This document shows, piece after piece, positions 1 through 58,330 of a stretch of 64,000 nucleotides of DNA. Source of the DNA: Eimeria praecox (taxonomy: Eukaryota). The stretch spans positions 1,736,001 to 1,800,000 of the forward strand of contig OY986947.1 of NCBI GenBank assembly GCA_963920595.1, in the 5' to 3' direction. A model generated the notes under the pieces. That model ran no database searches, was not told the DNA's origin, and saw nothing but the letters and a program-made list of their open reading frames with translations. Made by a program: the position numbers and the translations under genes. The number at the start of each line of letters is the position of its first letter. Within the stretch, counting starts at the first letter, position 1.

Positions 1-505
1 GGGATAACTGGTTCAAAATGGTTTCCACAAGACATGCTTTCGGAAGCCAAGCGTTGTGGAGTCATCCTAAATGCGGTGCTGCATTGGCAAAATGTGCCAT
101 CCCCCCCTTGAAGCAACTAAAATGCAATTGATATCATGCGCCAACTCTTGCAACCAATTGTCGATACATGCTGCTGCTGCGAACCACTGATTTAAGCTGC
201 CGGTTCTAATACCTTTATTTGCAAGTGTCACAACATCCCTGTAGTAGTAACTGTGAATTACTTAACCTACGCAAATGGAGTTACTGTAGCCCTAACCCCC
301 ATCGAAAACCCAAACAGTAACTCTAGTGTCAGCTTCTCCAGGGAGAAGATTCACGCAAAACCAAAGGCTTCAACACGGCTAAAACCTCTACCGAACCACC
401 AAACAGGGAGCACCAAAATGCATATCGTACCTAGTTGCTCCTGAGTCCTTATAGCTTCCGGATGTCTCAGGAACACATACCAAAAGGATGCTGCGGCGTT
501 CTCCT

Positions 506-570
506 TCAGAAGTTGCGACAGTAATTCCTCAATAACAGTTCAGAGAGAGGAACAATAAATTTATCATCCT
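506..570 (-). ncRNA. Box C/D snoRNA candidate, paralog 1, with a D' guide resembling the LSU sarcin-ricin loop (repeated every +2173)
   Basis: Minus strand: box C AGGATGA (570-564), D' CTGA (543-540), C' TGAGGA, box D CTGA (509-506); GAGAGGAAC(A) follows D' on the + strand. Confidence 0.75.
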
Positions 571-632
571 TCAGCCGTTGTATCCCTTTTACAAAGGGGA
601 ATGCATGCACACATACACACTGCCAACACATG

Positions 633-696
633 TCAGGGATTGCGACAGTAATTCCTCAATAACAGTTCAGAGAGAGGAACAAAAGAGTATCATCCT
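633..696 (-). ncRNA. Box C/D snoRNA candidate, paralog 2 of 506-570 (repeated every +2173)
   Basis: Same core sequence as 513-553; box C 696-690, D' 670-667, D 636-633; flanking stem TGCCAAC (621-627)/GTTGGCA (701-707). Confidence 0.75.
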
Positions 697-815
697 TCTC
701 GTTGGCAGCATGCTGAATGGCCGGGCCAAGTTAATGGTGTAAGGTGAAATGGATCTAGCTGAACGCCGACGGGTACTCTACAGGCCCGTCCGTAAGCACC
801 AAGCCTACATGGCTC

Positions 816-900
816 TCAGCAGTTGTTTTAACGCGGCTTAGAAGTTAAGCAATGCATCGTGCCCCACCAAGCCACGCAGATACCCTGCTTGATTCATCCA
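816..900 (-). ncRNA. Box C/D snoRNA candidate, target unassigned (repeated every +2173)
   Basis: Box C TGGATGA (900-894), putative D' CTGC (879-876), C'-like CGATGC, box D CTGA (819-816); typical length. Confidence 0.5.
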
Positions 901-950
901 CCAACTATAAATGCACGCGTACATAAGTCATTCTCATGTTTCAGCGAACC

Positions 951-1016
951 TCAGTTTCAGCAATGCAGTTAATCAAAATTTCATTCATAGGACATGGATT
1001 ATAATGTCGTCATCGG
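951..1016 (-). ncRNA. Box C/D snoRNA candidate with a tentative D' guide to LSU GGACAUGGGUUA-type sequence (repeated every +2173)
   Basis: Box C CCGATGA (1016-1010), D' ATGA (988-985), guide GGACATGGATTA at 990-1001 (one G:U), box D CTGA (954-951), external stem TCAGCG/CGCTGA. Confidence 0.6.
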
Positions 1017-1055
1017 AAACGCTGATGAAATAAAATTAGGACATGATAAACCTTT

Positions 1056-1133
1056 TCAGTGCGATAAGGGATGCGTTCGCAGTTTGCTCATCACGGAAAT
1101 CAGCGAGATTCCCATGAGCGAATGGCTCATCCT
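1056..1133 (-). ncRNA. Dual-guide box C/D snoRNA targeting LSU positions equivalent to yeast A2326 (human U79 site) and A1143 (repeated every +2173)
   Basis: Box D 1059-1056 with GCGATAAGGGATG; perfect C' GTGATGA; D' 1103-1100 with CGAGATTCCCA (LSU AACGAGAUUCCCAC); box C AGGATGA 1133-1127; CCTT/AAGG stem. Confidence 0.85.
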
Positions 1134-1248
1134 CAAGGTGTCCTAAATATGTATTTGCATGCACAACACAACATCCAGCTACTCATACTAAAACACAAAA
1201 GCACGCAAAACGTAGCTGCTGTTTCTATATATAGGCTAGATGAGTATA

Positions 1249-1327
1249 TCAGGCAATGCTCTTGACCGATCCTCATCAAAGCAAGTAGCTGCAGAAGCAG
1301 AACTGGCTTGAGGTCATATTTCATCCG
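1249..1327 (-). ncRNA. Box C/D snoRNA, snR61/U38-like (yeast 25S Am1133) (repeated every +2173)
   Basis: Box D 1252-1249, C' TGATGA 1278-1273, D' CTGC 1294-1291, 13-nt guide AAGCAGAACTGGC (1295-1307) with D'+5 on the conserved A, box C CGGATGA 1327-1321. Confidence 0.88.
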
Positions 1328-1469
1328 CAGATGCAAACGAAACGCAGATAAGCAAAGACATTACCACCATATTCACGCCCCAGTTACTTACAAAAAATAA
1401 ATCAGAGAAATACGACGCATTATGCACACAAATACAGATACTCACTCATGCGGTGTAATGCTGCATTCA

Positions 1470-1530
1470 TCAGTTATGTCAAGTTACGTCATCGGTAGTC
1501 CGATATATGCTTGTCATTAAAATTCATCAC
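1470..1530 (-). ncRNA. Box C/D snoRNA, snR74/U27-like (18S Am28) (repeated every +2173)
   Basis: Box C GTGATGA 1530-1524, guide ATATGCTTGTC (1505-1515, 18S 26-36), D' CGGA 1502-1499 placing +5 on A28, C' CGATGA, box D 1473-1470. Confidence 0.88.
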
Positions 1531-1796
1531 CATTCCTCCCCTGCAGCCATTAACACCCTAGAAACAAAAACTGCACCCCATCATGCGTTCTCCTGCCTGC
1601 ACTCATCAGCAAAGTGAGAATAGCGAGATGGAGCTTGATTCATAACTTTTTAGCAGTCGTGTATATTCCATGCACCAGAATTGACAAGGCAATAAATAGC
1701 TTAGTCTAGGCTAGCACATGGCAGTACGTCAACTGCACATAAAACATAAAACTCTGTAAAGTTAGTTGGACGCATCGTCTTAGCCAATGCTCGCTC

Positions 1797-1866
1797 TCAG
1801 TCGAAAGATGGTGATTTGATTTGTAATCATCACAGGCAATCCGTATATAAGTAATAACTCCATCAC
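1797..1866 (-). ncRNA. Box C/D snoRNA, snR39/snR59/U51-like (yeast 25S Am807) (repeated every +2173)
   Basis: Box D 1800-1797 followed by CGAAAGATGGTGA (LSU CCCGAAAGAUGGUGAAC), D+5 = A807; C' GTGATGA 1833-1827; box C GTGATGG 1866-1860. Confidence 0.88.
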
Positions 1867-2166
1867 CGAGGAAGCACGGGTTCTTGCAAACTACTTTTCT
1901 ACATCATTTAGCAATGCCACTTTAATAGTGCAACTGAAAGGGCACAGAAACGTTGTATCACACATCATGAAGTTTTCTTAAATTTCACGTCTGAAGAGAC
2001 GGAAGCGACAAACTGCCACGTTCTGCTTGCCGCAGGGAAAATCGTATCGCTCCCGCGTTAGAAGTATTTGCAGCTAGTTTAACGCAACTGGAGAACAGCA
2101 GCTCCGAGAAGCGCTGATAAACTGCTATTAAACAACGTGTGAAGGGCATGGTAATGAGCAACGCCA

Positions 2167-2241
2167 TCAGACAGGGATAACTGGTTCAAAATGGTTTCCA
2201 CAAGACATGCTTTCGGAAGCCAAGCGTTGTGGAGTCATCCT
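2167..2241 (-). ncRNA. Box C/D snoRNA, snR38-like (yeast 25S Gm2815) with a second guide to the C2836-equivalent (repeated every +2173; last copy 13032-13105)
   Basis: Box D 2170-2167 followed by 14-nt ACAGGGATAACTGG (peptidyl transferase centre), D+5 = G2815; D' CCGA followed by AGCCAAGCGTT; box C AGGATGA. Confidence 0.9.
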
Positions 2242-5200
2242 AAATGCGGTGCTGCATTGGCAAAATGTGCCATCCCCCCCTTGAAGCAACTAAAATGCAA
2301 TTGATATCATGCGCCAACTCTTGCAACCAATTGTCGATACATGCTGCTGCTGCGAACCACTGATTTAAGCTGCCGGTTCTAATACCTTTATTTGCAAGTG
2401 TCACAACATCCCTGTAGTAGTAACTGTGAATTACTTAACCTACGCAAATGGAGTTACTGTAGCCCTAACCCCCATCGAAAACCCAAACAGTAACTCTAGT
2501 GTCAGCTTCTCCAGGGAGAAGATTCACGCAAAACCAAAGGCTTCAACACGGCTAAAACCTCTACCGAACCACCAAACAGGGAGCACCAAAATGCATATCG
2601 TAGCTAGTTGCTCCTGAGTCCTTATAGCTTCCGGATGTCTCAGGAACACATACCAAAAGGATGCTGCGGCGTTCTCCTTCAGAAGTTGCGACAGTAATTC
2701 CTCAATAACAGTTCAGAGAGAGGAACAATAAATTTATCATCCTTCAGCCGTTGTATCCCTTTTACAAAGGGGAATGCATGCACACATACACACTGCCAAC
2801 ACATGTCAGGGATTGCGACAGTAATTCCTCAATAACAGTTCAGAGAGAGGAACAAAAGAGTATCATCCTTCTCGTTGGCAGCATGCTGAATGGCCGCGCC
2901 AAGTTAATGGTGTAAGGTGAAATGGATCTAGCTGAACGCCGACGGGTACTCTACAGGCCCGTCCGTAAGCACCAAGCCTACATGGCTCTCAGCAGTTGTT
3001 TTAACGCGGCTTAGAAGTTAAGCAATGCATCGTGCCCCACCAAGCCACGCAGATACCCTGCTTGATTCATCCACCAACTATAAATGCACGCGTACATAAG
3101 TCATTCTCATGTTTCAGCGAACCTCAGTTTCAGCAATGCAGTTAATCAAAATTTGATTCATAGGACATGGATTATAATGTCGTCATCGGAAACGCTGATG
3201 AAATAAAATTAGGACATGATAAACCTTTTCAGTGCGATAAGGGATGCGTTCGCAGTTTGCTCATCACGGAAATCAGCGAGATTCCCATGAGCGAATGGCT
3301 CATCCTCAAGGTGTCCTAAATATGTATTTGCATGCACAACACAACATCCAGCTACTCATACTAAAACACAAAAGCACGCAAAACGTAGCTGCTGTTTCTA
3401 TATATAGGCTAGATGAGTATATCAGGCAATGCTCTTGACCGATCCTCATCAAAGCAAGTAGCTGCAGAAGCAGAACTGGCTTGAGGTCATATTTCATCCG
3501 CAGATGCAAACGAAACGCAGATAAGCAAAGACATTACCACCATATTCACGCCCCAGTTACTTACAAAAAATAAATCAGAGAAATACGACGCATTATGCAC
3601 ACAAATACAGATACTCACTCATGCGGTGTAATGCTGCATTCATCAGTTGTGTCAAGTTACGTCATCGGTAGTCCGATATATGCTTGTCATTAAAATTCAT
3701 CACCATTCCTCTCCTGCAGCCATTAACACCCTAGAAACAAAAACTGCACCCCATCATGCGTTCTCCTGCCTGCACTCATCAGCAAAGTGAGAATAGCGAG
3801 ATGGAGCTTGATTCATAACTTTTTAGCAGTCGTGTATATTCCATGCACCAGAATTGACAAGGCAATAAATAGCTTAGTCTAGGCTAGCACATGGCAGTAC
3901 GTCAACTGCACATAAAACATAAAACTCTGTAAAGTTAGTTGGACGCATCGTCTTAGCCAATGCTCGCTCTCAGTCGAAAGATGGTGATTTGATTTGTAAT
4001 CATCACAGGCAATCCGTATATAAGTAATAACTCCATCACCGAGGAAGCACGGGTTCTTGCAAACTACTTTTCTACATCATTTAGCAATGCCACTTTAATA
4101 GTGCAACTGAAAGGGCACAGAAACGTTGTATCACACATCATGAAGTTTTCTTAAATTTCACGTCTGAAGAGACGGAAGCGACAAACTGCCACGTTCTGCT
4201 TGCCGCAGGGAAAATCGTATCGCTCCCGCGTTAGAAGTATTTGCAGCTAGTTTAACGCAACTGGAGAACAGCAGCTCCGAGAAGCGCTGATAAACTGCTA
4301 TTAAACAACGTGTGAAGGGCATGGTAATGAGCAACGCCATCAGACAGGGATAACTGGTTCAAAATGGTTTCCACAAGACATGCTTTCGGAAGCCAAGCGT
4401 TGTGGAGTCATCCTAAATGCGGTGCTGCATTGGCAAAATGTGCCATCCCCCCCTTGAAGCAACTAAAATGCAATTGATATCATGCGCCAACTCTTGCAAC
4501 CAATTGTCGATACATGCTGCTGCTGCGAACCACTGATTTAAGCTGCCGGTTCTAATACCTTTATTTGCAAGTGTCACAACATCCCTGTAGTAGTAACTGT
4601 GAATTACTTAACCTACGCAAATGGAGTTACTGTAGCCCTAACCCCCATCGAAAACCCAAACAGTAACTCTAGTGTCAGCTTCTCCAGGGAGAAGATTCAC
4701 GCAAAACCAAAGGCTTCAACACGGCTAAAACCTCTACCGAACCACCAAACAGGGAGCACCAAAATGCATATCGTAGCTAGTTGCTCCTGAGTCCTTATAG
4801 CTTCCGGATGTCTCAGGAACACATACCAAAAGGATGCTGCGGCGTTCTCCTTCAGAAGTTGCGACAGTAATTCCTCAATAACAGTTCAGAGAGAGGAACA
4901 ATAAATTTATCATCCTTCAGCCGTTGTATCCCTTTTACAAAGGGGAATGCATGCACACATACACACTGCCAACACATGTCAGGGATTGCGACAGTAATTC
5001 CTCAATAACAGTTCAGAGAGAGGAACAAAAGAGTATCATCCTTCTCGTTGGCAGCATGCTGAATGGCCGCGCCAAGTTAATGGTGTAAGGTGAAATGGAT
5101 CTAGCTGAACGCCGACGGGTACTCTACAGGCCCGTCCGTAAGCACCAAGCCTACATGGCTCTCAGCAGTTGTTTTAACGCGGCTTAGAAGTTAAGCAATG

Positions 5201-8200
5201 CATCGTGCCCCACCAAGCCACGCAGATACCCTGCTTGATTCATCCACCAACTATAAATGCACGCGTACATAAGTCATTCTCATGTTTCAGCGAACCTCAG
5301 TTTCAGCAATGCAGTTAATCAAAATTTGATTCATAGGACATGGATTATAATGTCGTCATCGGAAACGCTGATGAAATAAAATTAGGACATGATAAACCTT
5401 TTCAGTGCGATAAGGGATGCGTTCGCAGTTTGCTCATCACGGAAATCAGCGAGATTCCCATGAGCGAATGGCTCATCCTCAAGGTGTCCTAAATATGTAT
5501 TTGCATGCACAACACAACATCCAGCTACTCATACTAAAACACAAAAGCACGCAAAACGTAGCTGCTGTTTCTATATATAGGCTAGATGAGTATATCAGGC
5601 AATGCTCTTGACCGATCCTCATCAAAGCAAGTAGCTGCAGAAGCAGAACTGGCTTGAGGTCATATTTCATCCGCAGATGCAAACGAAACGCAGATAAGCA
5701 AAGACATTACCACCATATTCACGCCCCAGTTACTTACAAAAAATAAATCAGAGAAATACGACGCATTATGCACACAAATACAGATACTCACTCATGCGGT
5801 GTAATGCTGCATTCATCAGTTGTGTCAAGTTACGTCATCGGTAGTCCGATATATGCTTGTCATTAAAATTCATCACCATTCCTCTCCTGCAGCCATTAAC
5901 ACCCTAGAAACAAAAACTGCACCCCATCATGCGTTCTCCTGCCTGCACTCATCAGCAAAGTGAGAATAGCGAGATGGAGCTTGATTCATAACTTTTTAGC
6001 AGTCGTGTATATTCCATGCACCAGAATTGACAAGGCAATAAATAGCTTAGTCTAGGCTAGCACATGGCAGTACGTCAACTGCACATAAAACATAAAACTC
6101 TGTAAAGTTAGTTGGACGCATCGTCTTAGCCAATGCTCGCTCTCAGTCGAAAGATGGTGATTTGATTTGTAATCATCACAGGCAATCCGTATATAAGTAA
6201 TAACTCCATCACCGAGGAAGCACGGGTTCTTGCAAACTACTTTTCTACATCATTTAGCAATGCCACTTTAATAGTGCAACTGAAAGGGCACAGAAACGTT
6301 GTATCACACATCATGAAGTTTTCTTAAATTTCACGTCTGAAGAGACGGAAGCGACAAACTGCCACGTTCTGCTTGCCGCAGGGAAAATCGTATCGCTCCC
6401 GCGTTAGAAGTATTTGCAGCTAGTTTAACGCAACTGGAGAACAGCAGCTCCGAGAAGCGCTGATAAACTGCTATTAAACAACGTGTGAAGGGCATGGTAA
6501 TGAGCAACGCCATCAGACAGGGATAACTGGTTCAAAATGGTTTCCACAAGACATGCTTTCGGAAGCCAAGCGTTGTGGAGTCATCCTAAATGCGGTGCTG
6601 CATTGGCAAAATGTGCCATCCCCCCCTTGAAGCAACTAAAATGCAATTGATATCATGCGCCAACTCTTGCAACCAATTGTCGATACATGCTGCTGCTGCG
6701 AACCACTGATTTAAGCTGCCGGTTCTAATACCTTTATTTGCAAGTGTCACAACATCCCTGTAGTAGTAACTGTGAATTACTTAACCTACGCAAATGGAGT
6801 TACTGTAGCCCTAACCCCCATCGAAAACCCAAACAGTAACTCTAGTGTCAGCTTCTCCAGGGAGAAGATTCACGCAAAACCAAAGGCTTCAACACGGCTA
6901 AAACCTCTACCGAACCACCAAACAGGGAGCACCAAAATGCATATCGTAGCTAGTTGCTCCTGAGTCCTTATAGCTTCCGGATGTCTCAGGAACACATACC
7001 AAAAGGATGCTGCGGCGTTCTCCTTCAGAAGTTGCGACAGTAATTCCTCAATAACAGTTCAGAGAGAGGAACAATAAATTTATCATCCTTCAGCCGTTGT
7101 ATCCCTTTTACAAAGGGGAATGCATGCACACATACACACTGCCAACACATGTCAGGGATTGCGACAGTAATTCCTCAATAACAGTTCAGAGAGAGGAACA
7201 AAAGAGTATCATCCTTCTCGTTGGCAGCATGCTGAATGGCCGCGCCAAGTTAATGGTGTAAGGTGAAATGGATCTAGCTGAACGCCGACGGGTACTCTAC
7301 AGGCCCGTCCGTAAGCACCAAGCCTACATGGCTCTCAGCAGTTGTTTTAACGCGGCTTAGAAGTTAAGCAATGCATCGTGCCCCACCAAGCCACGCAGAT
7401 ACCCTGCTTGATTCATCCACCAACTATAAATGCACGCGTACATAAGTCATTCTCATGTTTCAGCGAACCTCAGTTTCAGCAATGCAGTTAATCAAAATTT
7501 GATTCATAGGACATGGATTATAATGTCGTCATCGGAAACGCTGATGAAATAAAATTAGGACATGATAAACCTTTTCAGTGCGATAAGGGATGCGTTCGCA
7601 GTTTGCTCATCACGGAAATCAGCGAGATTCCCATGAGCGAATGGCTCATCCTCAAGGTGTCCTAAATATGTATTTGCATGCACAACACAACATCCAGCTA
7701 CTCATACTAAAACACAAAAGCACGCAAAACGTAGCTGCTGTTTCTATATATAGGCTAGATGAGTATATCAGGCAATGCTCTTGACCGATCCTCATCAAAG
7801 CAAGTAGCTGCAGAAGCAGAACTGGCTTGAGGTCATATTTCATCCGCAGATGCAAACGAAACGCAGATAAGCAAAGACATTACCACCATATTCACGCCCC
7901 AGTTACTTACAAAAAATAAATCAGAGAAATACGACGCATTATGCACACAAATACAGATACTCACTCATGCGGTGTAATGCTGCATTCATCAGTTATGTCA
8001 AGTTACGTCATCGGTAGTCCGATATATGCTTGTCATTAAAATTCATCACCATTCCTCTCCTGCAGCCATTAACACCCTAGAAACAAAAACTGCACCCCAT
8101 CATGCGTTCTCCTGCCTGCACTCATCAGCAAAGTGAGAATAGCGAGATGGAGCTTGATTCATAACTTTTTAGCAGTCGTGTATATTCCATGCACCAGAAT

Positions 8201-11200
8201 TGACAAGGCAATAAATAGCTTAGTCTAGGCTAGCACATGGCAGTACGTCAACTGCACATAAAACATAAAACTCTGTAAAGTTAGTTGGACGCATCGTCTT
8301 AGCCAATGCTCGCTCTCAGTCGAAAGATGGTGATTTGATTTGTAATCATCACAGGCAATCCGTATATAAGTAATAACTCCATCACCGAGGAAGCACGGGT
8401 TCTTGCAAACTACTTTTCTACATCATTTAGCAATGCCACTTTAATAGTGCAACTGAAAGGGCACAGAAACGTTGTATCACACATCATGAAGTTTTCTTAA
8501 ATTTCACGTCTGAAGAGACGGAAGCGACAAACTGCCACGTTCTGCTTGCCGCAGGGAAAATCGTATCGCTCCCGCGTTAGAAGTATTTGCAGCTAGTTTA
8601 ACGCAACTGGAGAACAGCAGCTCCGAGAAGCGCTGATAAACTGCTATTAAACAACGTGTGAAGGGCATGGTAATGAGCAACGCCATCAGACAGGGATAAC
8701 TGGTTCAAAATGGTTTCCACAAGACATGCTTTCGGAAGCCAAGCGTTGTGGAGTCATCCTAAATGCGGTGCTGCATTGGCAAAATGTGCCATCCCCCCCT
8801 TGAAGCAACTAAAATGCAATTGATATCATGCGCCAACTCTTGCAACCAATTGTCGATACATGCTGCTGCTGCGAACCACTGATTTAAGCTGCCGGTTCTA
8901 ATACCTTTATTTGCAAGTGTCACAACATCCCTGTAGTAGTAACTGTGAATTACTTAACCTACGCAAATGGAGTTACTGTAGCCCTAACCCCCATCGAAAA
9001 CCCAAACAGTAACTCTAGTGTCAGCTTCTCCAGGGAGAAGATTCACGCAAAACCAAAGGCTTCAACACGGCTAAAACCTCTACCGAACCACCAAACAGGG
9101 AGCACCAAAATGCATATCGTAGCTAGTTGCTCCTGAGTCCTTATAGCTTCCGGATGTCTCAGGAACACATACCAAAAGGATGCTGCGGCGTTCTCCTTCA
9201 GAAGTTGCGACAGTAATTCCTCAATAACAGTTCAGAGAGAGGAACAATAAATTTATCATCCTTCAGCCGTTGTATCCCTTTTACAAAGGGGAATGCATGC
9301 ACACATACACACTGCCAACACATGTCAGGGATTGCGACAGTAATTCCTCAATAACAGTTCAGAGAGAGGAACAAAAGAGTATCATCCTTCTCGTTGGCAG
9401 CATGCTGAATGGCCGCGCCAAGTTAATGGTGTAAGGTGAAATGGATCTAGCTGAACGCCGACGGGTACTCTACAGGCCCGTCCGTAAGCACCAAGCCTAC
9501 ATGGCTCTCAGCAGTTGTTTTAACGCGGCTTAGAAGTTAAGCAATGCATCGTGCCCCACCAAGCCACGCAGATACCCTGCTTGATTCATCCACCAACTAT
9601 AAATGCACGCGTACATAAGTCATTCTCATGTTTCAGCGAACCTCAGTTTCAGCAATGCAGTTAATCAAAATTTGATTCATAGGACATGGATTATAATGTC
9701 GTCATCGGAAACGCTGATGAAATAAAATTAGGACATGATAAACCTTTTCAGTGCGATAAGGGATGCGTTCGCAGTTTGCTCATCACGGAAATCAGCGAGA
9801 TTCCCATGAGCGAATGGCTCATCCTCAAGGTGTCCTAAATATGTATTTGCATGCACAACACAACATCCAGCTACTCATACTAAAACACAAAAGCACGCAA
9901 AACGTAGCTGCTGTTTCTATATATAGGCTAGATGAGTATATCAGGCAATGCTCTTGACCGATCCTCATCAAAGCAAGTAGCTGCAGAAGCAGAACTGGCT
10001 TGAGGTCATATTTCATCCGCAGATGCAAACGAAACGCAGATAAGCAAAGACATTACCACCATATTCACGCCCCAGTTACTTACAAAAAATAAATCAGAGA
10101 AATACGACGCATTATGCACACAAATACAGATACTCACTCATGCGGTGTAATGCTGCATTCATCAGTTATGTCAAGTTACGTCATCGGTAGTCCGATATAT
10201 GCTTGTCATTAAAATTCATCACCATTCCTCTCCTGCAGCCATTAACACCCTAGAAACAAAAACTGCACCCCATCATGCGTTCTCCTGCCTGCACTCATCA
10301 GCAAAGTGAGAATAGCGAGATGGAGCTTGATTCATAACTTTTTAGCAGTCGTGTATATTCCATGCACCAGAATTGACAAGGCAATAAATAGCTTAGTCTA
10401 GGCTAGCACATGGCAGTACGTCAACTGCACATAAAACATAAAACTCTGTAAAGTTAGTTGGACGCATCGTCTTAGCCAATGCTCGCTCTCAGTCGAAAGA
10501 TGGTGATTTGATTTGTAATCATCACAGGCAATCCGTATATAAGTAATAACTCCATCACCGAGGAAGCACGGGTTCTTGCAAACTACTTTTCTACATCATT
10601 TAGCAATGCCACTTTAATAGTGCAACTCAAAGGGCACAGAAACGTTGTATCACACATCATGAAGTTTTCTTAAATTTCACGTCTGAAGAGACGGAAGCGA
10701 CAAACTGCCACGTTCTGCTTGCCGCAGGGAAAATCGTATCGCTCCCGCGTTAGAAGTATTTGCAGCTAGTTTAACGCAACTGGAGAACAGCAGCTCCGAG
10801 AAGCGCTGATAAACTGCTATTAAACAACGTGTGAAGGGCATGGTAATGAGCAACGCCATCAGACAGGGATAACTGGTTCAAAATGGTTTCCACAAGACAT
10901 GCTTTCGGAAGCCAAGCGTTGTGGAGTCATCCTAAATGCGGTGCTGCATTGGCAAAATGTGCCATCCCCCCCTTGAAGCAACTAAAATGCAATTGATATC
11001 ATGCGCCAACTCTTGCAACCAATTGTCGATACATGCTGCTGCTGCGAACCACTGATTTAAGCTGCCGGTTCTAATACCTTTATTTGCAAGTGTCACAACA
11101 TCCCTGTAGTAGTAACTGTGAATTACTTAACCTACGCAAATGGAGTTACTGTAGCCCTAACCCCCATCGAAAACCCAAACAGTAACTCTAGTGTCAGCTT

Positions 11201-13125
11201 CTCCAGGGAGAAGATTCACGCAAAACCAAAGGCTTCAACACGGCTAAAACCTCTACCGAACCACCAAACAGGGAGCACCAAAATGCATATCGTACCTAGT
11301 TGCTCCTGAGTCCTTATAGCTTCCGGATGTCTCAGGAACACATACCAAAAGGATGCTGCGGCGTTCTCCTTCAGAAGTTGCGACAGTAATTCCTCAATAA
11401 CAGTTCAGAGAGAGGAACAATAAATTTATCATCCTTCAGCCGTTGTATCCCTTTTACAAAGGGGAATGCATGCACACATACACACTGCCAACACATGTCA
11501 GGGATTGCGACAGTAATTCCTCAATAACAGTTCAGAGAGAGGAACAAAAGAGTATCATCCTTCTCGTTGGCAGCATGCTGAATGGCCGCGCCAAGTTAAT
11601 GGTGTAAGGTGAAATGGATCTAGCTGAACGCCGACGGGTACTCTACAGGCCCGTCCGTAAGCACCAAGCCTACATGGCTCTCAGCAGTTGTTTTAACGCG
11701 GCTTAGAAGTTAAGCAATGCATCGTGCCCCACCAAGCCACGCAGATACCCTGCTTGATTCATCCACCAACTATAAATGCACGCGTACATAAGTCATTCTC
11801 GTGTTTCAGCGAACCTCAGTTTCAGCACTACAATTAATCAAAATTTGATTCATAGGACATGGATTATAATGTCGTCATCGGAAACGCTGATGAAATAAAA
11901 TTAGGAAATGATAAACCTTTTCAGTGCGATAAGGGATGCGTTCGCAGTTTGCTCATCACGGAAATCAGCGAGATTCCCATGAGCGAATGGCTCATCCTCA
12001 AGGTGTCCTAAATATGTATTTGCACGCACAACACAACATCCAGCTACTCACACTAAAACACAAAAGCACGCAAAACGTAGCTGCTGTTTCTATATATAGG
12101 CTAGATGAGTATATCAGGCAATGCTCTTGACCGATCCTCATCAAAGCAAGTAGCTGCAGAAGCAGAACTGGCTTGAGGTCATATTTCATCCGCAGATGCA
12201 AACGAAACGCAGATAAGCAAAGACATTACCACCATATTCACGCCCCAGTTACTTACAAAAAATAAATCAGAGAAATACGACGCATTATGCACACAAATAC
12301 AGATACTCACTCATGCGGTGTAATGCTGCATTCATCAGTTATGTCAAGTTACGTCATCGGTAGTCCGATATATGCTTGTCATTAAAATTCATCACCATTC
12401 CTCTCCTGCAGCCATTAACACCCTAGAAACAAAAACTGCACCCCATCATGCGTTCTCCTGCCTGCACTCATCAGCAAAGTGAGAATAGCGAGATGGAGCT
12501 TGATTCATAACTTTTTAGCAGTCGTGTATATTCCATGCACCAGAATTGACAAGGCAATAAATAGCTTAGTCTAGGCTAGCACATGGCAGTACGTCAACTG
12601 CACATAAAACATAAAACTCTGTAAAGTTAGTTGGACGCATCGTCTTAGCCAGTGCTCGCTCTCAGTCGAAAGATGGTGATTTGACTTGTAATCATCACAG
12701 GCAATCCGTATATAAGTAATAACTCCATCACCGAGGAAGCACGGGTTCTTGCAAACTACTTCTCTACATCACTTAGCAATGCCACTTTAATAGTGCAACT
12801 CAAAGGGCACAGAAACGTTGTATCACACATCATGAAGTTTTCTTAAATTTCACGTCTGAAGAGATGGAAGCGACAAACTGCCACGTTCTGCTTGCCGCAG
12901 GGAAAATCGTATCGCTCCCGCGTTAGAAGTATTTGCAGCTAGTTTAACGCAACTGGAGAACAGCAGCTCCGAGAAGCGCTGATAAACTGCTATTAAACAA
13001 CGTGTGAAGGGCATGGTAATGAGCAACGCCATCAGACAGGGATAACTGGTTCAAATGGTTTCCACAAGACATGCTTTCGGAAGCCAAGCGTTGTGGAGTC
13101 ATCCCAGCGGCGCAAACAGCATGTT

Positions 13126-13344: not shown

Positions 13345-13419
13345 CATTTCAGACTGGGGCGACAAATAATGTCGACAGGAAAAGCTTCCGACTGTCAGAG
13401 ATTGTCAATCATCAGAATG
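13345..13419 (-). ncRNA. Box C/D snoRNA, snR67/U31-like (P-loop, yeast Gm2619 = E. coli Gm2251), copy 1
   Basis: Box D 13352-13349 followed by ACTGGGGCGACA (D+5 = P-loop G); D' CGGA followed by ACTGTCAGAG (18S-like); box C CTGATGA 13415-13409; terminal stem CTTGCATT/AATGCAAG. Confidence 0.88.
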
Positions 13420-13489: not shown

Positions 13490-13563
13490 CTTCTCAGCCT
13501 GGGGCGACAAGACTGTCGACAGAAGATATTTCCGCCTGTCAGAGATTGTCAATCATCATGAAG
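13490..13563 (-). ncRNA. Box C/D snoRNA, snR67/U31-like, copy 2
   Basis: Box D 13497-13494 followed by CCTGGGGCGACA; D' CGGA followed by CCTGTCAGAG; box C ATGATGA 13559-13553; stem ATGCTTC/GAAGCAT. Confidence 0.88.
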
Positions 13564-13677: not shown

Positions 13678-15709
13678 TCATGAATCGACTTCTATTGCTT
13701 CCACTTGCTTCTGTTCTTCAGCAAGTGCGAGCAGTGCACGCTGCTGCTGCTCGAGCAATAAAGCGGGTTGCTGGGCCGCTAGCTCCCTACGGATTTCAGG
13801 TCCAACCTTATCATGAAAATAGATCTTTAGAACCTCTTTCAACTTCGCTCTCTGCGACGATGTCAGGTTGACTGAGCACACACCAGCAAAGAGCGCCACA
13901 AAATGTAAACAGCGCTTCCGTTGTCCGCCAAATTCTGCAAATACCACGCTACAGGGATTCAGGAAGCCCTTCAAGCAAGCGTACCTTTGTACCGTTGTAC
14001 AAGAACGAGAAGACACTTGTGCCAGGCAACCGTCACCTTTACTTCACGTGAAAGGAAACGGTGAAAATGGTTGACACATTCGTCAATAGCCTGAACAAAC
14101 AAGCAGAGCAAGGCGGAATGAACTGATTTCGATTTACCAGCGGGAATAAGCGACCTGCCGTAAATGTTGCGAGGAAGGCCACAGATAGACGCTGCAAACA
14201 ATTTTGCAAGGTGAAAAAGGGTCTCCAGCAACCAGTGAATGCCGAGGCCGAGTGTGCCTTGCAGCCTTTAGCATATCCGGCAAAACCAGTGTAGCAGCCG
14301 AACGCACCTGGGTTGGAAGAGAGTACTTCTTGTCAATCAACACAGTCATCATGTGGCTGACTGACGGAATCCACTGGTCAGGCTCGACAGCAGCCAGTCT
14401 AAAAAGGGCTGCCGCGCCGTGGAGGACTGGAATCGAGACCTTCGCCACAACGCTCCCAACAATTATCGCCTCTCTAATGGTGCACCCCTGCAGAGAAGCA
14501 AAACATGCTCTCGCAACAACCACGTCATTCGATTTGAATGAATGTCGAAATGCTGTCGTACGACTGCTCGAACCAACGAAGGCTTGCTTACATTGAGTGC
14601 CAGGGGCAGGTAGATACCCTTGAAGAAAGCGCCTGGTTTGAACAGAGCTTTTTTAAGAGCCATGTAGAGATGGCAGTTTAGTTTTTTGTTTTCTGCAATA
14701 TCGTCTCGAACCGCTGGAAGGAGCACCGTGCACAAGAACCTCTGGGCCATGGCCTCCCGCAAGTTGCTACAGAAAATACGCGTCGCCTCCCTGGTGGCCT
14801 GCTTTGACCATAATGGCGGGTTGGTGAGCACGAGCACCTCCTCCCACGCATGAAGTCGAGGTATGATTTTGAACGCCTTGGGCATTTTCCCACTTCTGTA
14901 GCGCGCGAGGAACGGCGCCATTGCCGAGTACACCTCAACGACTTTTGGCGACAAGCTGGACTCCGGCGCTTCCACCTTCTCAGACGCGGTCTCGGTTTGT
15001 TTTTTCAGCTGTTCCATCACGAGATCGGCCAGATTCGTTGTACCGCGCGCGATGTCTCCAGCCCTCTGCTTGTAAAAGGCTGCATCCTCCTCGTCTTCCT
15101 CGCAGTCCAACACGACGAAGCCATCCTCGTCAGCCTCCTCCTCTTCACCAGAGTCCCTGCCCTCCTCATCCGACCCACTTGCAACACCTTCTCTGCAGAC
15201 GTGCAAACCAAAACCCATAAATACGGTCGTTCAGCCCCTGAAATATGCGCCAATTACGGATTGGGAATCGGCACCATACGGATGCCTGTGCAAAACAATG
15301 ACAGTTGACTCACGCCTTCTGCTGCTCCTCCACAAGCTTCAGCAGTTTCTTGCCGAGCTTTGCAGGTAGCATCGCATTCTCCGCAGCCTCCTCTCGACTC
15401 GTCGCTTCAACTGCTTCGGCATCTTCGAAAGCTTCTCTTATCTTCTTGTTGCGGTAAGCGTTTATTGCGCCCCCTGGTAGAGGAACGCCCTGCGCGTCCA
15501 GGACGTCCTCATGTAACGGGTTGTGACGGTAGGCGCCCTTGCGCCGTTTGCGCTCCGCTTTAGGCCTGAGCGCGAAAACCGTACAAATGCAGCACACCAC
15601 CAATGGGGTTCTGTAGCTCCAAGGGACGTTATCATCCGCAATGAGAACAAGGTGCAAATGATGCACAGACAGAAGCAAGTCCTCGGTCGCTCACATATTA
15701 CGGCGTCAT
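13678..15709 (-). CDS. BYSL: Bystin/Enp1 (40S biogenesis factor); exons about 15709-15702, 15565-15314, 15192-14592, 14487-14308, 14090-13985, 13871-13678
   Basis: Motifs [89 protein letters not shown]; phase-consistent GT-AG introns; first micro-exon tentative. Confidence 0.95.
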
Positions 15710-30976: not shown

Positions 30977-31290
30977 CTACAGCAACAGCAGCAGCTGCAG
31001 CAACTGCAGCAACAGCTGCAGCAGCAGCTGCAGCAGCAGCAGCAGCTGCAGCAGCAGCAGCAGTTGCTGCAGCAGCAGCTGCAGCAGCAGCAGCAGTTGC
31101 TGCAGCAGCAGCAGCAGTTGCTGCAGCAGCAGCTGCAGCAGCAGCAGCAGTTGCTGCAGCAGCAGCAGCAGTTGCTGCAGCAGCAGCTGCAGCAGCAGCA
31201 GCAGCTGCAGCAGCAGCAGCAGTTGCTGCAGCAGCAGCTGCAGCAGCAGCAGCAGCTGCAGCAGCAGCAGCTGCAGCAGCAGTTGCTGCA
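30977..31290. repeat. Long CAG/CTG trinucleotide tract
   Basis: About 310 bp of GCA/GCT repeats. Confidence 0.95.
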
Positions 31291-58258: not shown

Positions 58259-58330
58259 TCCGAGTTAGTATAGTGGCTAGTATTTCCGCCTGTCACGCGG
58301 AAGACCCGGGTTCAATTCCCGGACTCGGAG
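58259..58330 (+). tRNA. tRNA-Asp(GTC)
   Basis: TCCGAGT/ACTCGGA acceptor stem, anticodon loop CTGTCAC, T-loop GTTCAATT, followed by TTTT. Confidence 0.97.

Follow-up and report, generated by a model that had tools for sequence, protein, structure and literature searches.

The window analysed here is a 64,000-nucleotide (nt) stretch of the Eimeria praecox genome (GenBank assembly GCA_963920595.1, contig OY986947.1, positions 1,736,001 to 1,800,000 of the forward strand). At its left end lies a tandem array of modules resembling small nucleolar RNA (snoRNA) genes, which begins about 570 base pairs (bp) behind the gene for bystin/ENP1, past two single-copy modules, a1 and a2 (Table 1). The initial annotation had read this apparent 2173-bp satellite as a tandemly amplified, minus-strand cluster of box C/D snoRNAs, and self-comparison of the window bears out both the period and the strand. 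The array comprises six units plus 67 bp that are 99.3-100% identical; the internal units are 99.8-100% identical, and divergence is greatest in the bystin-proximal unit. Across the six units, 21 letters vary; the proximal unit, from 11295 on, accounts for 13, and the variants include private as well as shared ones. Just 3 of the 21 fall within the 490 module bases and none in a box or a paired guide; boxes and guides are intact in all six units. Protein coding was rejected, the longest ATG frame within a unit being 64 amino acids.

Each unit carries 7 box C/D modules on the minus strand; together they have 11 guides antisense to ribosomal RNA (rRNA) and directed at 9 target sites. Another 3 candidates with boxes C and D are guide-less. 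The modules differ from one another, are separated by spacers of about 60-440 nt and are all co-oriented, as had been proposed. About nine modules per unit and more than 50 snoRNA copies in the window had also been proposed. Minus-strand C/D modules are indeed present and copies are numerous, but 7 modules have a convincing guide and the complete guide-bearing copies number 44, of which the array contributes 42 (7 in each of 6 units) and the upstream stretch 2; the higher figure holds only if the guide-less candidates are counted. In an exact listing, 39 array copies are recovered and the remaining 3 differ by 1-2 letters.

A C box and a CUGA D box are present in 7/7 array modules and 2/2 upstream modules, which are 61-80 nt long. 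Terminal stems are clear in a1, a2 and modules 2, 5 and 6 (-5 to -10 kcal/mol). As target surrogates, we used four long metagenome loci, each with full 18S, 5.8S and large-subunit (LSU) rRNA as identified with Rfam (numbering follows locus L074), which were retrieved with a spaced pattern made from the two guides of modules 6 and 7. This pattern led to 116 metagenome loci and thereby to LSU rRNA genes (rDNA) that carry the targets in the predicted order; in the 25 commonest contexts listed, 12 nt separate the two targets. The pattern matched no rDNA in viral contigs. The 11 guides of a unit form 10-14 bp and end 0-2 nt ahead of a D or D' box, from which the methylation target was called by the +5 rule. 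The six blocks that the initial annotation had quoted as identical to conserved rRNA are all minus-strand guide targets at 0-2 nt from a D/D' box, and each is found in at least 3 of the 4 surrogates. For A28, A1133, G2619, G2815 and the Z196/R39/R59 site, the +5 register is that of the Rfam or Plasmodium guides. Thus, the statement that the rule lands on known 2'-O-methyl sites stands for A28, A1133, G2815 and the Z196/R39/R59 register; the D' target of module 5, A2323, is presumably the U79 site of that statement. No known methylation site was matched in this analysis for A1169, U2996, A3023 and U884.

The arrangement of guides and boxes exceeds chance expectation. A conserved antisense 10-mer ahead of a canonical CTGA occurs 6 times in the unit compared with a mean of 0.098 and a maximum of 3 in 2000 dinucleotide shuffles; the same count is 0 on the plus strand and at most 1 in each of 44 control tiles taken elsewhere in the window. 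Circularity affects three of the 6 hits, whose guides had served to retrieve the surrogate rRNAs; when these are left out, 3 hits remain, a count reached by 1 of the 2000 shuffles. When one mismatch in the box is allowed, there are 9 hits, among which two pairs share a guide, and none of the 2000 shuffles reaches this number (shuffle maximum 6).

Rfam points in the same direction. At curated cut-offs, RF00134 (snoZ196/R39/R59) is matched in 6/6 units with 60.8-62.1 bits against a gathering score of 55. A routine scan therefore picks up one module in each of the six units, and the earlier expectation that pipelines would miss the array was overstated; snoZ196 copies may already be flagged in the ToxoDB or RefSeq annotation. 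In a search of one unit with expectation values (E) up to 10, 11 of the 12 matches were to C/D families and all lay on the minus strand, with module 5 unmatched. In the stretch with a1 and a2, 11/11 matches were to C/D families, 10 of them on the minus strand and none at cut-off; they include weak matches of a1 to snoTBR7 (E 0.021) and of a2 to snoTBR7 (E 0.018) and SNORD31 (E 5.1). For module 1, snoR09 aligns over both guides under the gathering score (E 0.037). Guide sequences and their distance to the D/D' box align here with RF00134, snoR38, snR61, SNORD27 and snoTBR7/SNORD31; unlike RF00134, the other families match at the guide level only (E 0.018-5) and below cut-off.

Matching contigs were found in five sequencing runs, none of them recorded as RNA. 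X1 and X2 represent organism A (this organism, in two studies) and X4 represents organism B, a relative, while X5 (organism C) has just low-depth near-identical contigs and was left out as a second species. In organism A, the ratio of unit to flank depth is 965/50.8 = 19.0 in X2, with a junction contig at 906 (about n-1), and 9956/523-552 = 18-19 in X1. In organism B, the ratio is 1975/493 = 4.0, with a junction contig at 1500 = 3.0 (again about n-1). Contig depth is not itself a copy number, and the approximately 19 units in organism A and 4 units in organism B that these ratios suggest are, therefore, estimates. Organism B aligns across modules 1-7, skipping four spacers, and one of its contigs connects bystin with an a1/a2-like stretch and continues towards module 1. 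Ten of the 20 high-depth substitutions in organism B fall in four modules and none in a paired guide core (9 more substitution rows, which come from contigs with a depth below 3, were excluded). The ten lie in linkers, box C', the first base of the guide (an A-to-G change that retains pairing as G-U) and an unpaired base before box D. One substitution brings a C' box nearer to consensus, the C' box of module 7 is closer to consensus in organism B, and module 6 is present there with its D guide unchanged. Loose contig ends at 11854, 11156 and 10942 suggest that the far end of the array is truncated in unique DNA.

Table 1. Features of the bystin/ENP1-linked locus in window positions. Elements of the unit are given for the bystin-proximal unit; for the other units, multiples of 2173 are subtracted. 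SSU, small subunit.
Feature	Position	Strand	Predicted guides and remarks
Tandem array	1..13104	minus	Period 2173 bp, 6.03 units; cut by the left window end
Inter-unit spacer, about 420 nt	10952..11370	.	No alignment to organism B high-depth contigs
Module 7, module 6 paralogue (93% over 60 nt)	11371..11435	minus	Guides and register as module 6
Module 6, double guide	11498..11561	minus	D' to LSU A3023 (11-12 bp, one G-U); D to LSU U2996 (14 bp)
C...D candidate	11764-11681	minus	No convincing rRNA guide; within block aligning to organism B
C...D candidate	11880-11806	minus	No convincing rRNA guide; within block aligning to organism B
Module 5, double guide	11921..11998	minus	D' to LSU A2323 (11 bp); D to LSU A1169 (14 bp, one G-U)
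Module 4	12114..12193	minus	D' to LSU A1159 (13 bp; yeast Am1133 site); PFS6 counterpart; snR61 E 0.52
C...D candidate	12338-12267	minus	No guide; skipped by organism B alignment (joint 12195-12335)
Module 3	12335..12395	minus	D' to SSU A28 (11 bp); PFS4 counterpart; SNORD27 E 2.3
Module 2, snoZ196/R39/R59 family	12662..12731	minus	D to LSU A832 (13 bp); terminal stem present
Element of about 150 nt, in every unit	12842..12990	minus	No C/D boxes; two-hairpin fold, 12-bp stem
Module 1, double guide	13032..13105	minus	D' to LSU C2829 (11 bp, 3/4 surrogates); D to LSU G2808 (14 bp; yeast Gm2815 site)
Module a2, single-copy a1 paralogue	13349..13415	minus	Guides and register as a1; 8-bp terminal stem
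Module a1, single-copy	13494..13559	minus	D to LSU G2613 (yeast Gm2619 site); predicted D' to SSU U884; 7-bp terminal stem
Bystin/ENP1 gene, intron-containing	13678..15690	minus	Pfam PF05291 E 1.5e-58; best named hits Eimeria bystins 83-88%; 15690 is the limit of the open frame, not a start codon call

In Plasmodium falciparum, the ENP1 homologue hosts PFS5, PFS6 and PFS7 in its introns and is flanked by PFS4; the yeast-equivalent targets of PFS5, PFS6, PFS7 and PFS4 are Gm2619, Am1133, Gm2815 and Am28, respectively (Mishra et al., PMC2656528). In the printed PFS sequences, the guide-to-box distances equal those of a1/a2 and of modules 4, 1 and 3, and, by the coordinates in PMC2656528, the 5'-3' order G2619, G2815, A1133 matches that at Plasmodium ENP1. 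Accordingly, a1, in the PFS5 register, is the counterpart of PFS5 and module 1 that of PFS7/snoR09. A snR190/SNORD12-like identity of a1 and a2 was rejected, as position and PFS5 indicate the G2619 site. Four C/D RNAs were cloned at the P. falciparum ENP1 locus with 8-79 complementary DNAs each (Raabe et al., PMC2811010 supplement 2); by spacing and the Rfam snoR09 consensus we equate them with PFS4-PFS7 (Pfa snoR12, 10, 08 and 09). Host gene, four sites, register, the double guide of PFS7 and the strand are the same in both systems. By contrast, the Plasmodium set is single-copy and mostly intronic, whereas the Eimeria set lies 3' of the stop codon (a1 and a2 at 119 and 263 nt, respectively), adds A807-type, U79-type and helix-95 guides, and has seven modules tandemly amplified. 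A window-wide scan found no C/D-plus-guide module in the bystin introns.

Plasmodium snoRNAs are mostly single-copy, with one dicistronic precursor (PFS11-12) and one snoRNA in a 3' untranslated region (PMC2656528), and Cryptosporidium snoRNAs are also mostly single-copy (PMC9465071). In trypanosomatids, snoRNA clusters (PMC6562600, PMC3091756) combine co-oriented different snoRNAs with head-to-tail repeats of the cluster, as observed here. However, polycistronic transcription and trans-splicing are genome-wide in trypanosomatids and have been shown, while the array described here is one cluster next to a host gene; moreover, it belongs to a lineage with mostly single-copy snoRNAs (PMC2656528, PMC9465071), and no H/ACA member was identified in it. 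No account of a snoRNA array in Eimeria or Toxoplasma emerged from the literature searched, which comprised listings and abstract starts, with subscription papers and annotations (ToxoDB, RefSeq) outside its scope; the available portions of PMC13419753, PMC8092015, PMC9353057 and PMC5028923 contain nothing on a bystin-linked snoRNA locus.

Based on these data, we suggest that the array modules are very probably genes for methylation-guide snoRNAs, which would be cut out of longer precursor transcripts and incorporated into particles with fibrillarin. In this model, near-identical 2173-bp cassettes with seven modules each are predicted to be transcribed and cut into snoRNAs for 2'-O-methylation at nine rRNA positions. 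RNA polymerase II would make multi-snoRNA precursors, a1 and a2 would probably be released from the bystin 3' end, and trimming to fibrillarin-containing ribonucleoproteins is to be expected from what is known of this class and from the Plasmodium precedent. One read-through of about 40 kb from bystin appears less likely than starts in each unit, and the 420-nt spacer is a candidate site of a per-unit promoter or terminator. As for ancestry, the array most likely derives from an ancestral apicomplexan snoRNA cluster tied to bystin/ENP1, which is intronic and single-copy in Plasmodium and lies 3' of the gene here; linkage and guide identity argue for descent from a Plasmodium-type ENP1 cluster. 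Expansion may have occurred by unequal crossing-over with homogenisation, which fits the near-identity inside the array and the diverged unit at its edge, and copy number would drift between species (about 19 vs 4) rather than being tightly set. The initial proposal of a tandem box C/D snoRNA cluster is, thus, upheld by Rfam, the shuffle test, the Plasmodium register, block conservation in organism B and the depth ratios; the analysis adds three more target sites, the two modules upstream of the array and the link to bystin/ENP1, for which Plasmodium provides a precedent.

Several observations speak against this interpretation. Just 1 of the 7 modules passes an Rfam cut-off. The C boxes are mostly one letter off consensus (AGGATGA, GTGATGG, CGGATGA), deviating D' boxes include CGGA, CCGA and CTGC, and modules 1, 3, 4 and 7 have a weak terminal stem or none. 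The surrogates are environmental eukaryote rRNAs of unidentified taxa and not the rRNA of the species itself. The A28 guide is upstream of ENP1 in Plasmodium (PMC2656528) and downstream here. With respect to the depth ratios, which are not copy numbers, X1 and X4 are of unrecorded kind and X2 is DNA by guess. Finally, the list of organism B differences covers positions more than approximately 30 nt from alignment ends, and the D' guides of modules 6 and 7 fall outside this range.

Alternatively, the snoRNA genes could be real with only the proximal or a few units expressed, the rest being a silent satellite that captured the cluster. An approximately fivefold difference in copy number between organisms A and B, the G2619 pair that stays two-copy outside the array, the lack of an identified promoter and the loose ends that point to a truncated far array end are all compatible with this scenario. 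We consider it rather unlikely, given that boxes and guides have stayed intact throughout the six units of the window and that only 3/21 variants fall in modules; it should be added that homogenisation alone could produce intact boxes across units.

It is also conceivable that amplification was selected and provides a higher guide dose for a burst of ribosome synthesis in schizogony or oocyst formation. The tandem state is found in two organisms, the copy estimate agrees between the two studies of organism A, and the cassette lies behind a ribosome-assembly gene with the gene for ribosomal protein L36 (RPL36) about 1 kb beyond; moreover, Eimeria rDNA is itself tandem (PMC13107808). On the other hand, amplification does not extend to other guides of the locus, and copy number is 4 vs 19. 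This difference favours drift over tight dosage control and is also compatible with selection. Overall, we regard a selected dose as unlikely.

For modules 6 and 7, a different function has to be weighed. Their D' guide is directed at the last A (A3023) of a GAGA tetraloop, which we take to be the sarcin-ricin loop, and their two guides clamp one helix, 27 nt apart. A literature search for a guide to the sarcin-ricin loop found none by title or abstract start. A U18 identity was rejected because snoU18 matches with E 4.3 and the guide is unlike the U18 consensus and fits helix 95. In Tetrahymena, a C/D RNA for which pairing at the base of the sarcin-ricin stem is predicted affects processing and guides no detectable methylation (PMC6315972). 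Because of this RNA, we considered that modules 6 and 7 are folding chaperones that act on helix 95 in large-subunit assembly rather than methylation guides, as pairing of both guides with a single helix would also allow. However, the D and D' boxes of both paralogues are canonical and their +5 register is constant, and methylations in H95/H96 exist in Babesia rRNA (PMC12642447). The likeness to the Tetrahymena RNA, TtnuCD32, lies in the predicted pairing of a C/D RNA at the sarcin-ricin stem-loop; TtnuCD32 is U14-like and without methylation, whereas modules 6 and 7 have ordinary double guides (PMC6315972). A chaperone role, therefore, appears doubtful. Similarly, we can only speculate, with low expectation, that Eimeria moved an ENP1-linked intronic set into a copy-variable cassette and amplified it like rDNA for methylation dose, with a 2'-O-methyl in the sarcin-ricin GAGA and an unclassified 150-nt RNA. 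An assembly artefact of a single-copy cluster, to which the 99.8-100% identity of internal units might point, or chance matches in the modules are highly improbable in view of independent short-read contigs that give a depth ratio of 18-19 and contain the unit-to-unit junction, private and shared unit variants, the shuffle test and Rfam.

Among the remaining elements of the unit, the D' box of module 4 is degenerate (CTGC), and the A1169 site of module 5 is 10 nt from the module 4 site. A 5.8S target for the D guide of module 5 was rejected: the 11-nt match enters box D, and the LSU match is 14 bp. At 11995-11983 (-), module 5 also has a 13-nt perfect antisense to 18S 87-99 that overlaps box C; about 0.2 such matches are expected per unit by chance. 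This 18S region is where U14 domain A pairs (PMC2811010 supplement). The three C...D candidates have no conserved rRNA match of at least 10 bp in the four surrogates, and the one at 12338-12267 is probably not a snoRNA. The element of about 150 nt matches the snoRNA modules in its degree of conservation in organism B, and the listed changes lie in loops or preserve pairing in the centroid fold; its folding z of -1.2 is not significant, and no Rfam family matched it. An H/ACA identity was rejected in the absence of a canonical H or ACA box by eye, as was a sense copy of the module 4 target inside the hairpin element, which two organism B changes break. A hairpin in the spacer near 11200-11100 was likewise rejected as H/ACA (z -1.7, without alignment in organism B).

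Beyond bystin, the RPL36 gene (Pfam PF01158; 16726-17127, +) is head to head with bystin, and the two could possibly share a promoter. One of three hits of the window-wide scan outside the cluster, at 17454-17383 (-), is single-copy, has a C box and a D box that are both perfect and carries 10 nt antisense to LSU near 2173; it may be chance. The window is Eimeria-like, with AAACCCT and CAG repeats and Eimeria bystins as nearest named relatives (83-88%). From about 27800 onward, it changes sharply from repeat-poor to repeat-rich sequence (AAACCCT, CAG, TGCA), presumably the segmental layout of Eimeria chromosomes; the snoRNA array sits within the repeat-poor part. An isrG match above the Rfam cut-off at 30998-31264 (-) is a low-complexity artefact on a CAG/CTG microsatellite, and a tRNA-Asp(GTC) gene lies at 58259-58330 (+).

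Ordinary snoRNA parts, the host gene and repeated clusters in other protists were already known. What the locus adds is that an apparent satellite is reinterpreted as genes, which together form an initial, concrete repertoire of predicted guides for rRNA methylation in coccidia. The multi-copy, species-divergent spacer could serve as a target for diagnostic polymerase chain reaction. As copy number differs between species, snoRNA dose becomes testable, and in helix 95 the predicted sites single out specific nucleotides in the loop to which elongation factors bind. A link between snoRNAs and their host gene is common to Plasmodium and Eimeria, while the layout has shifted from intronic to a downstream tandem array.

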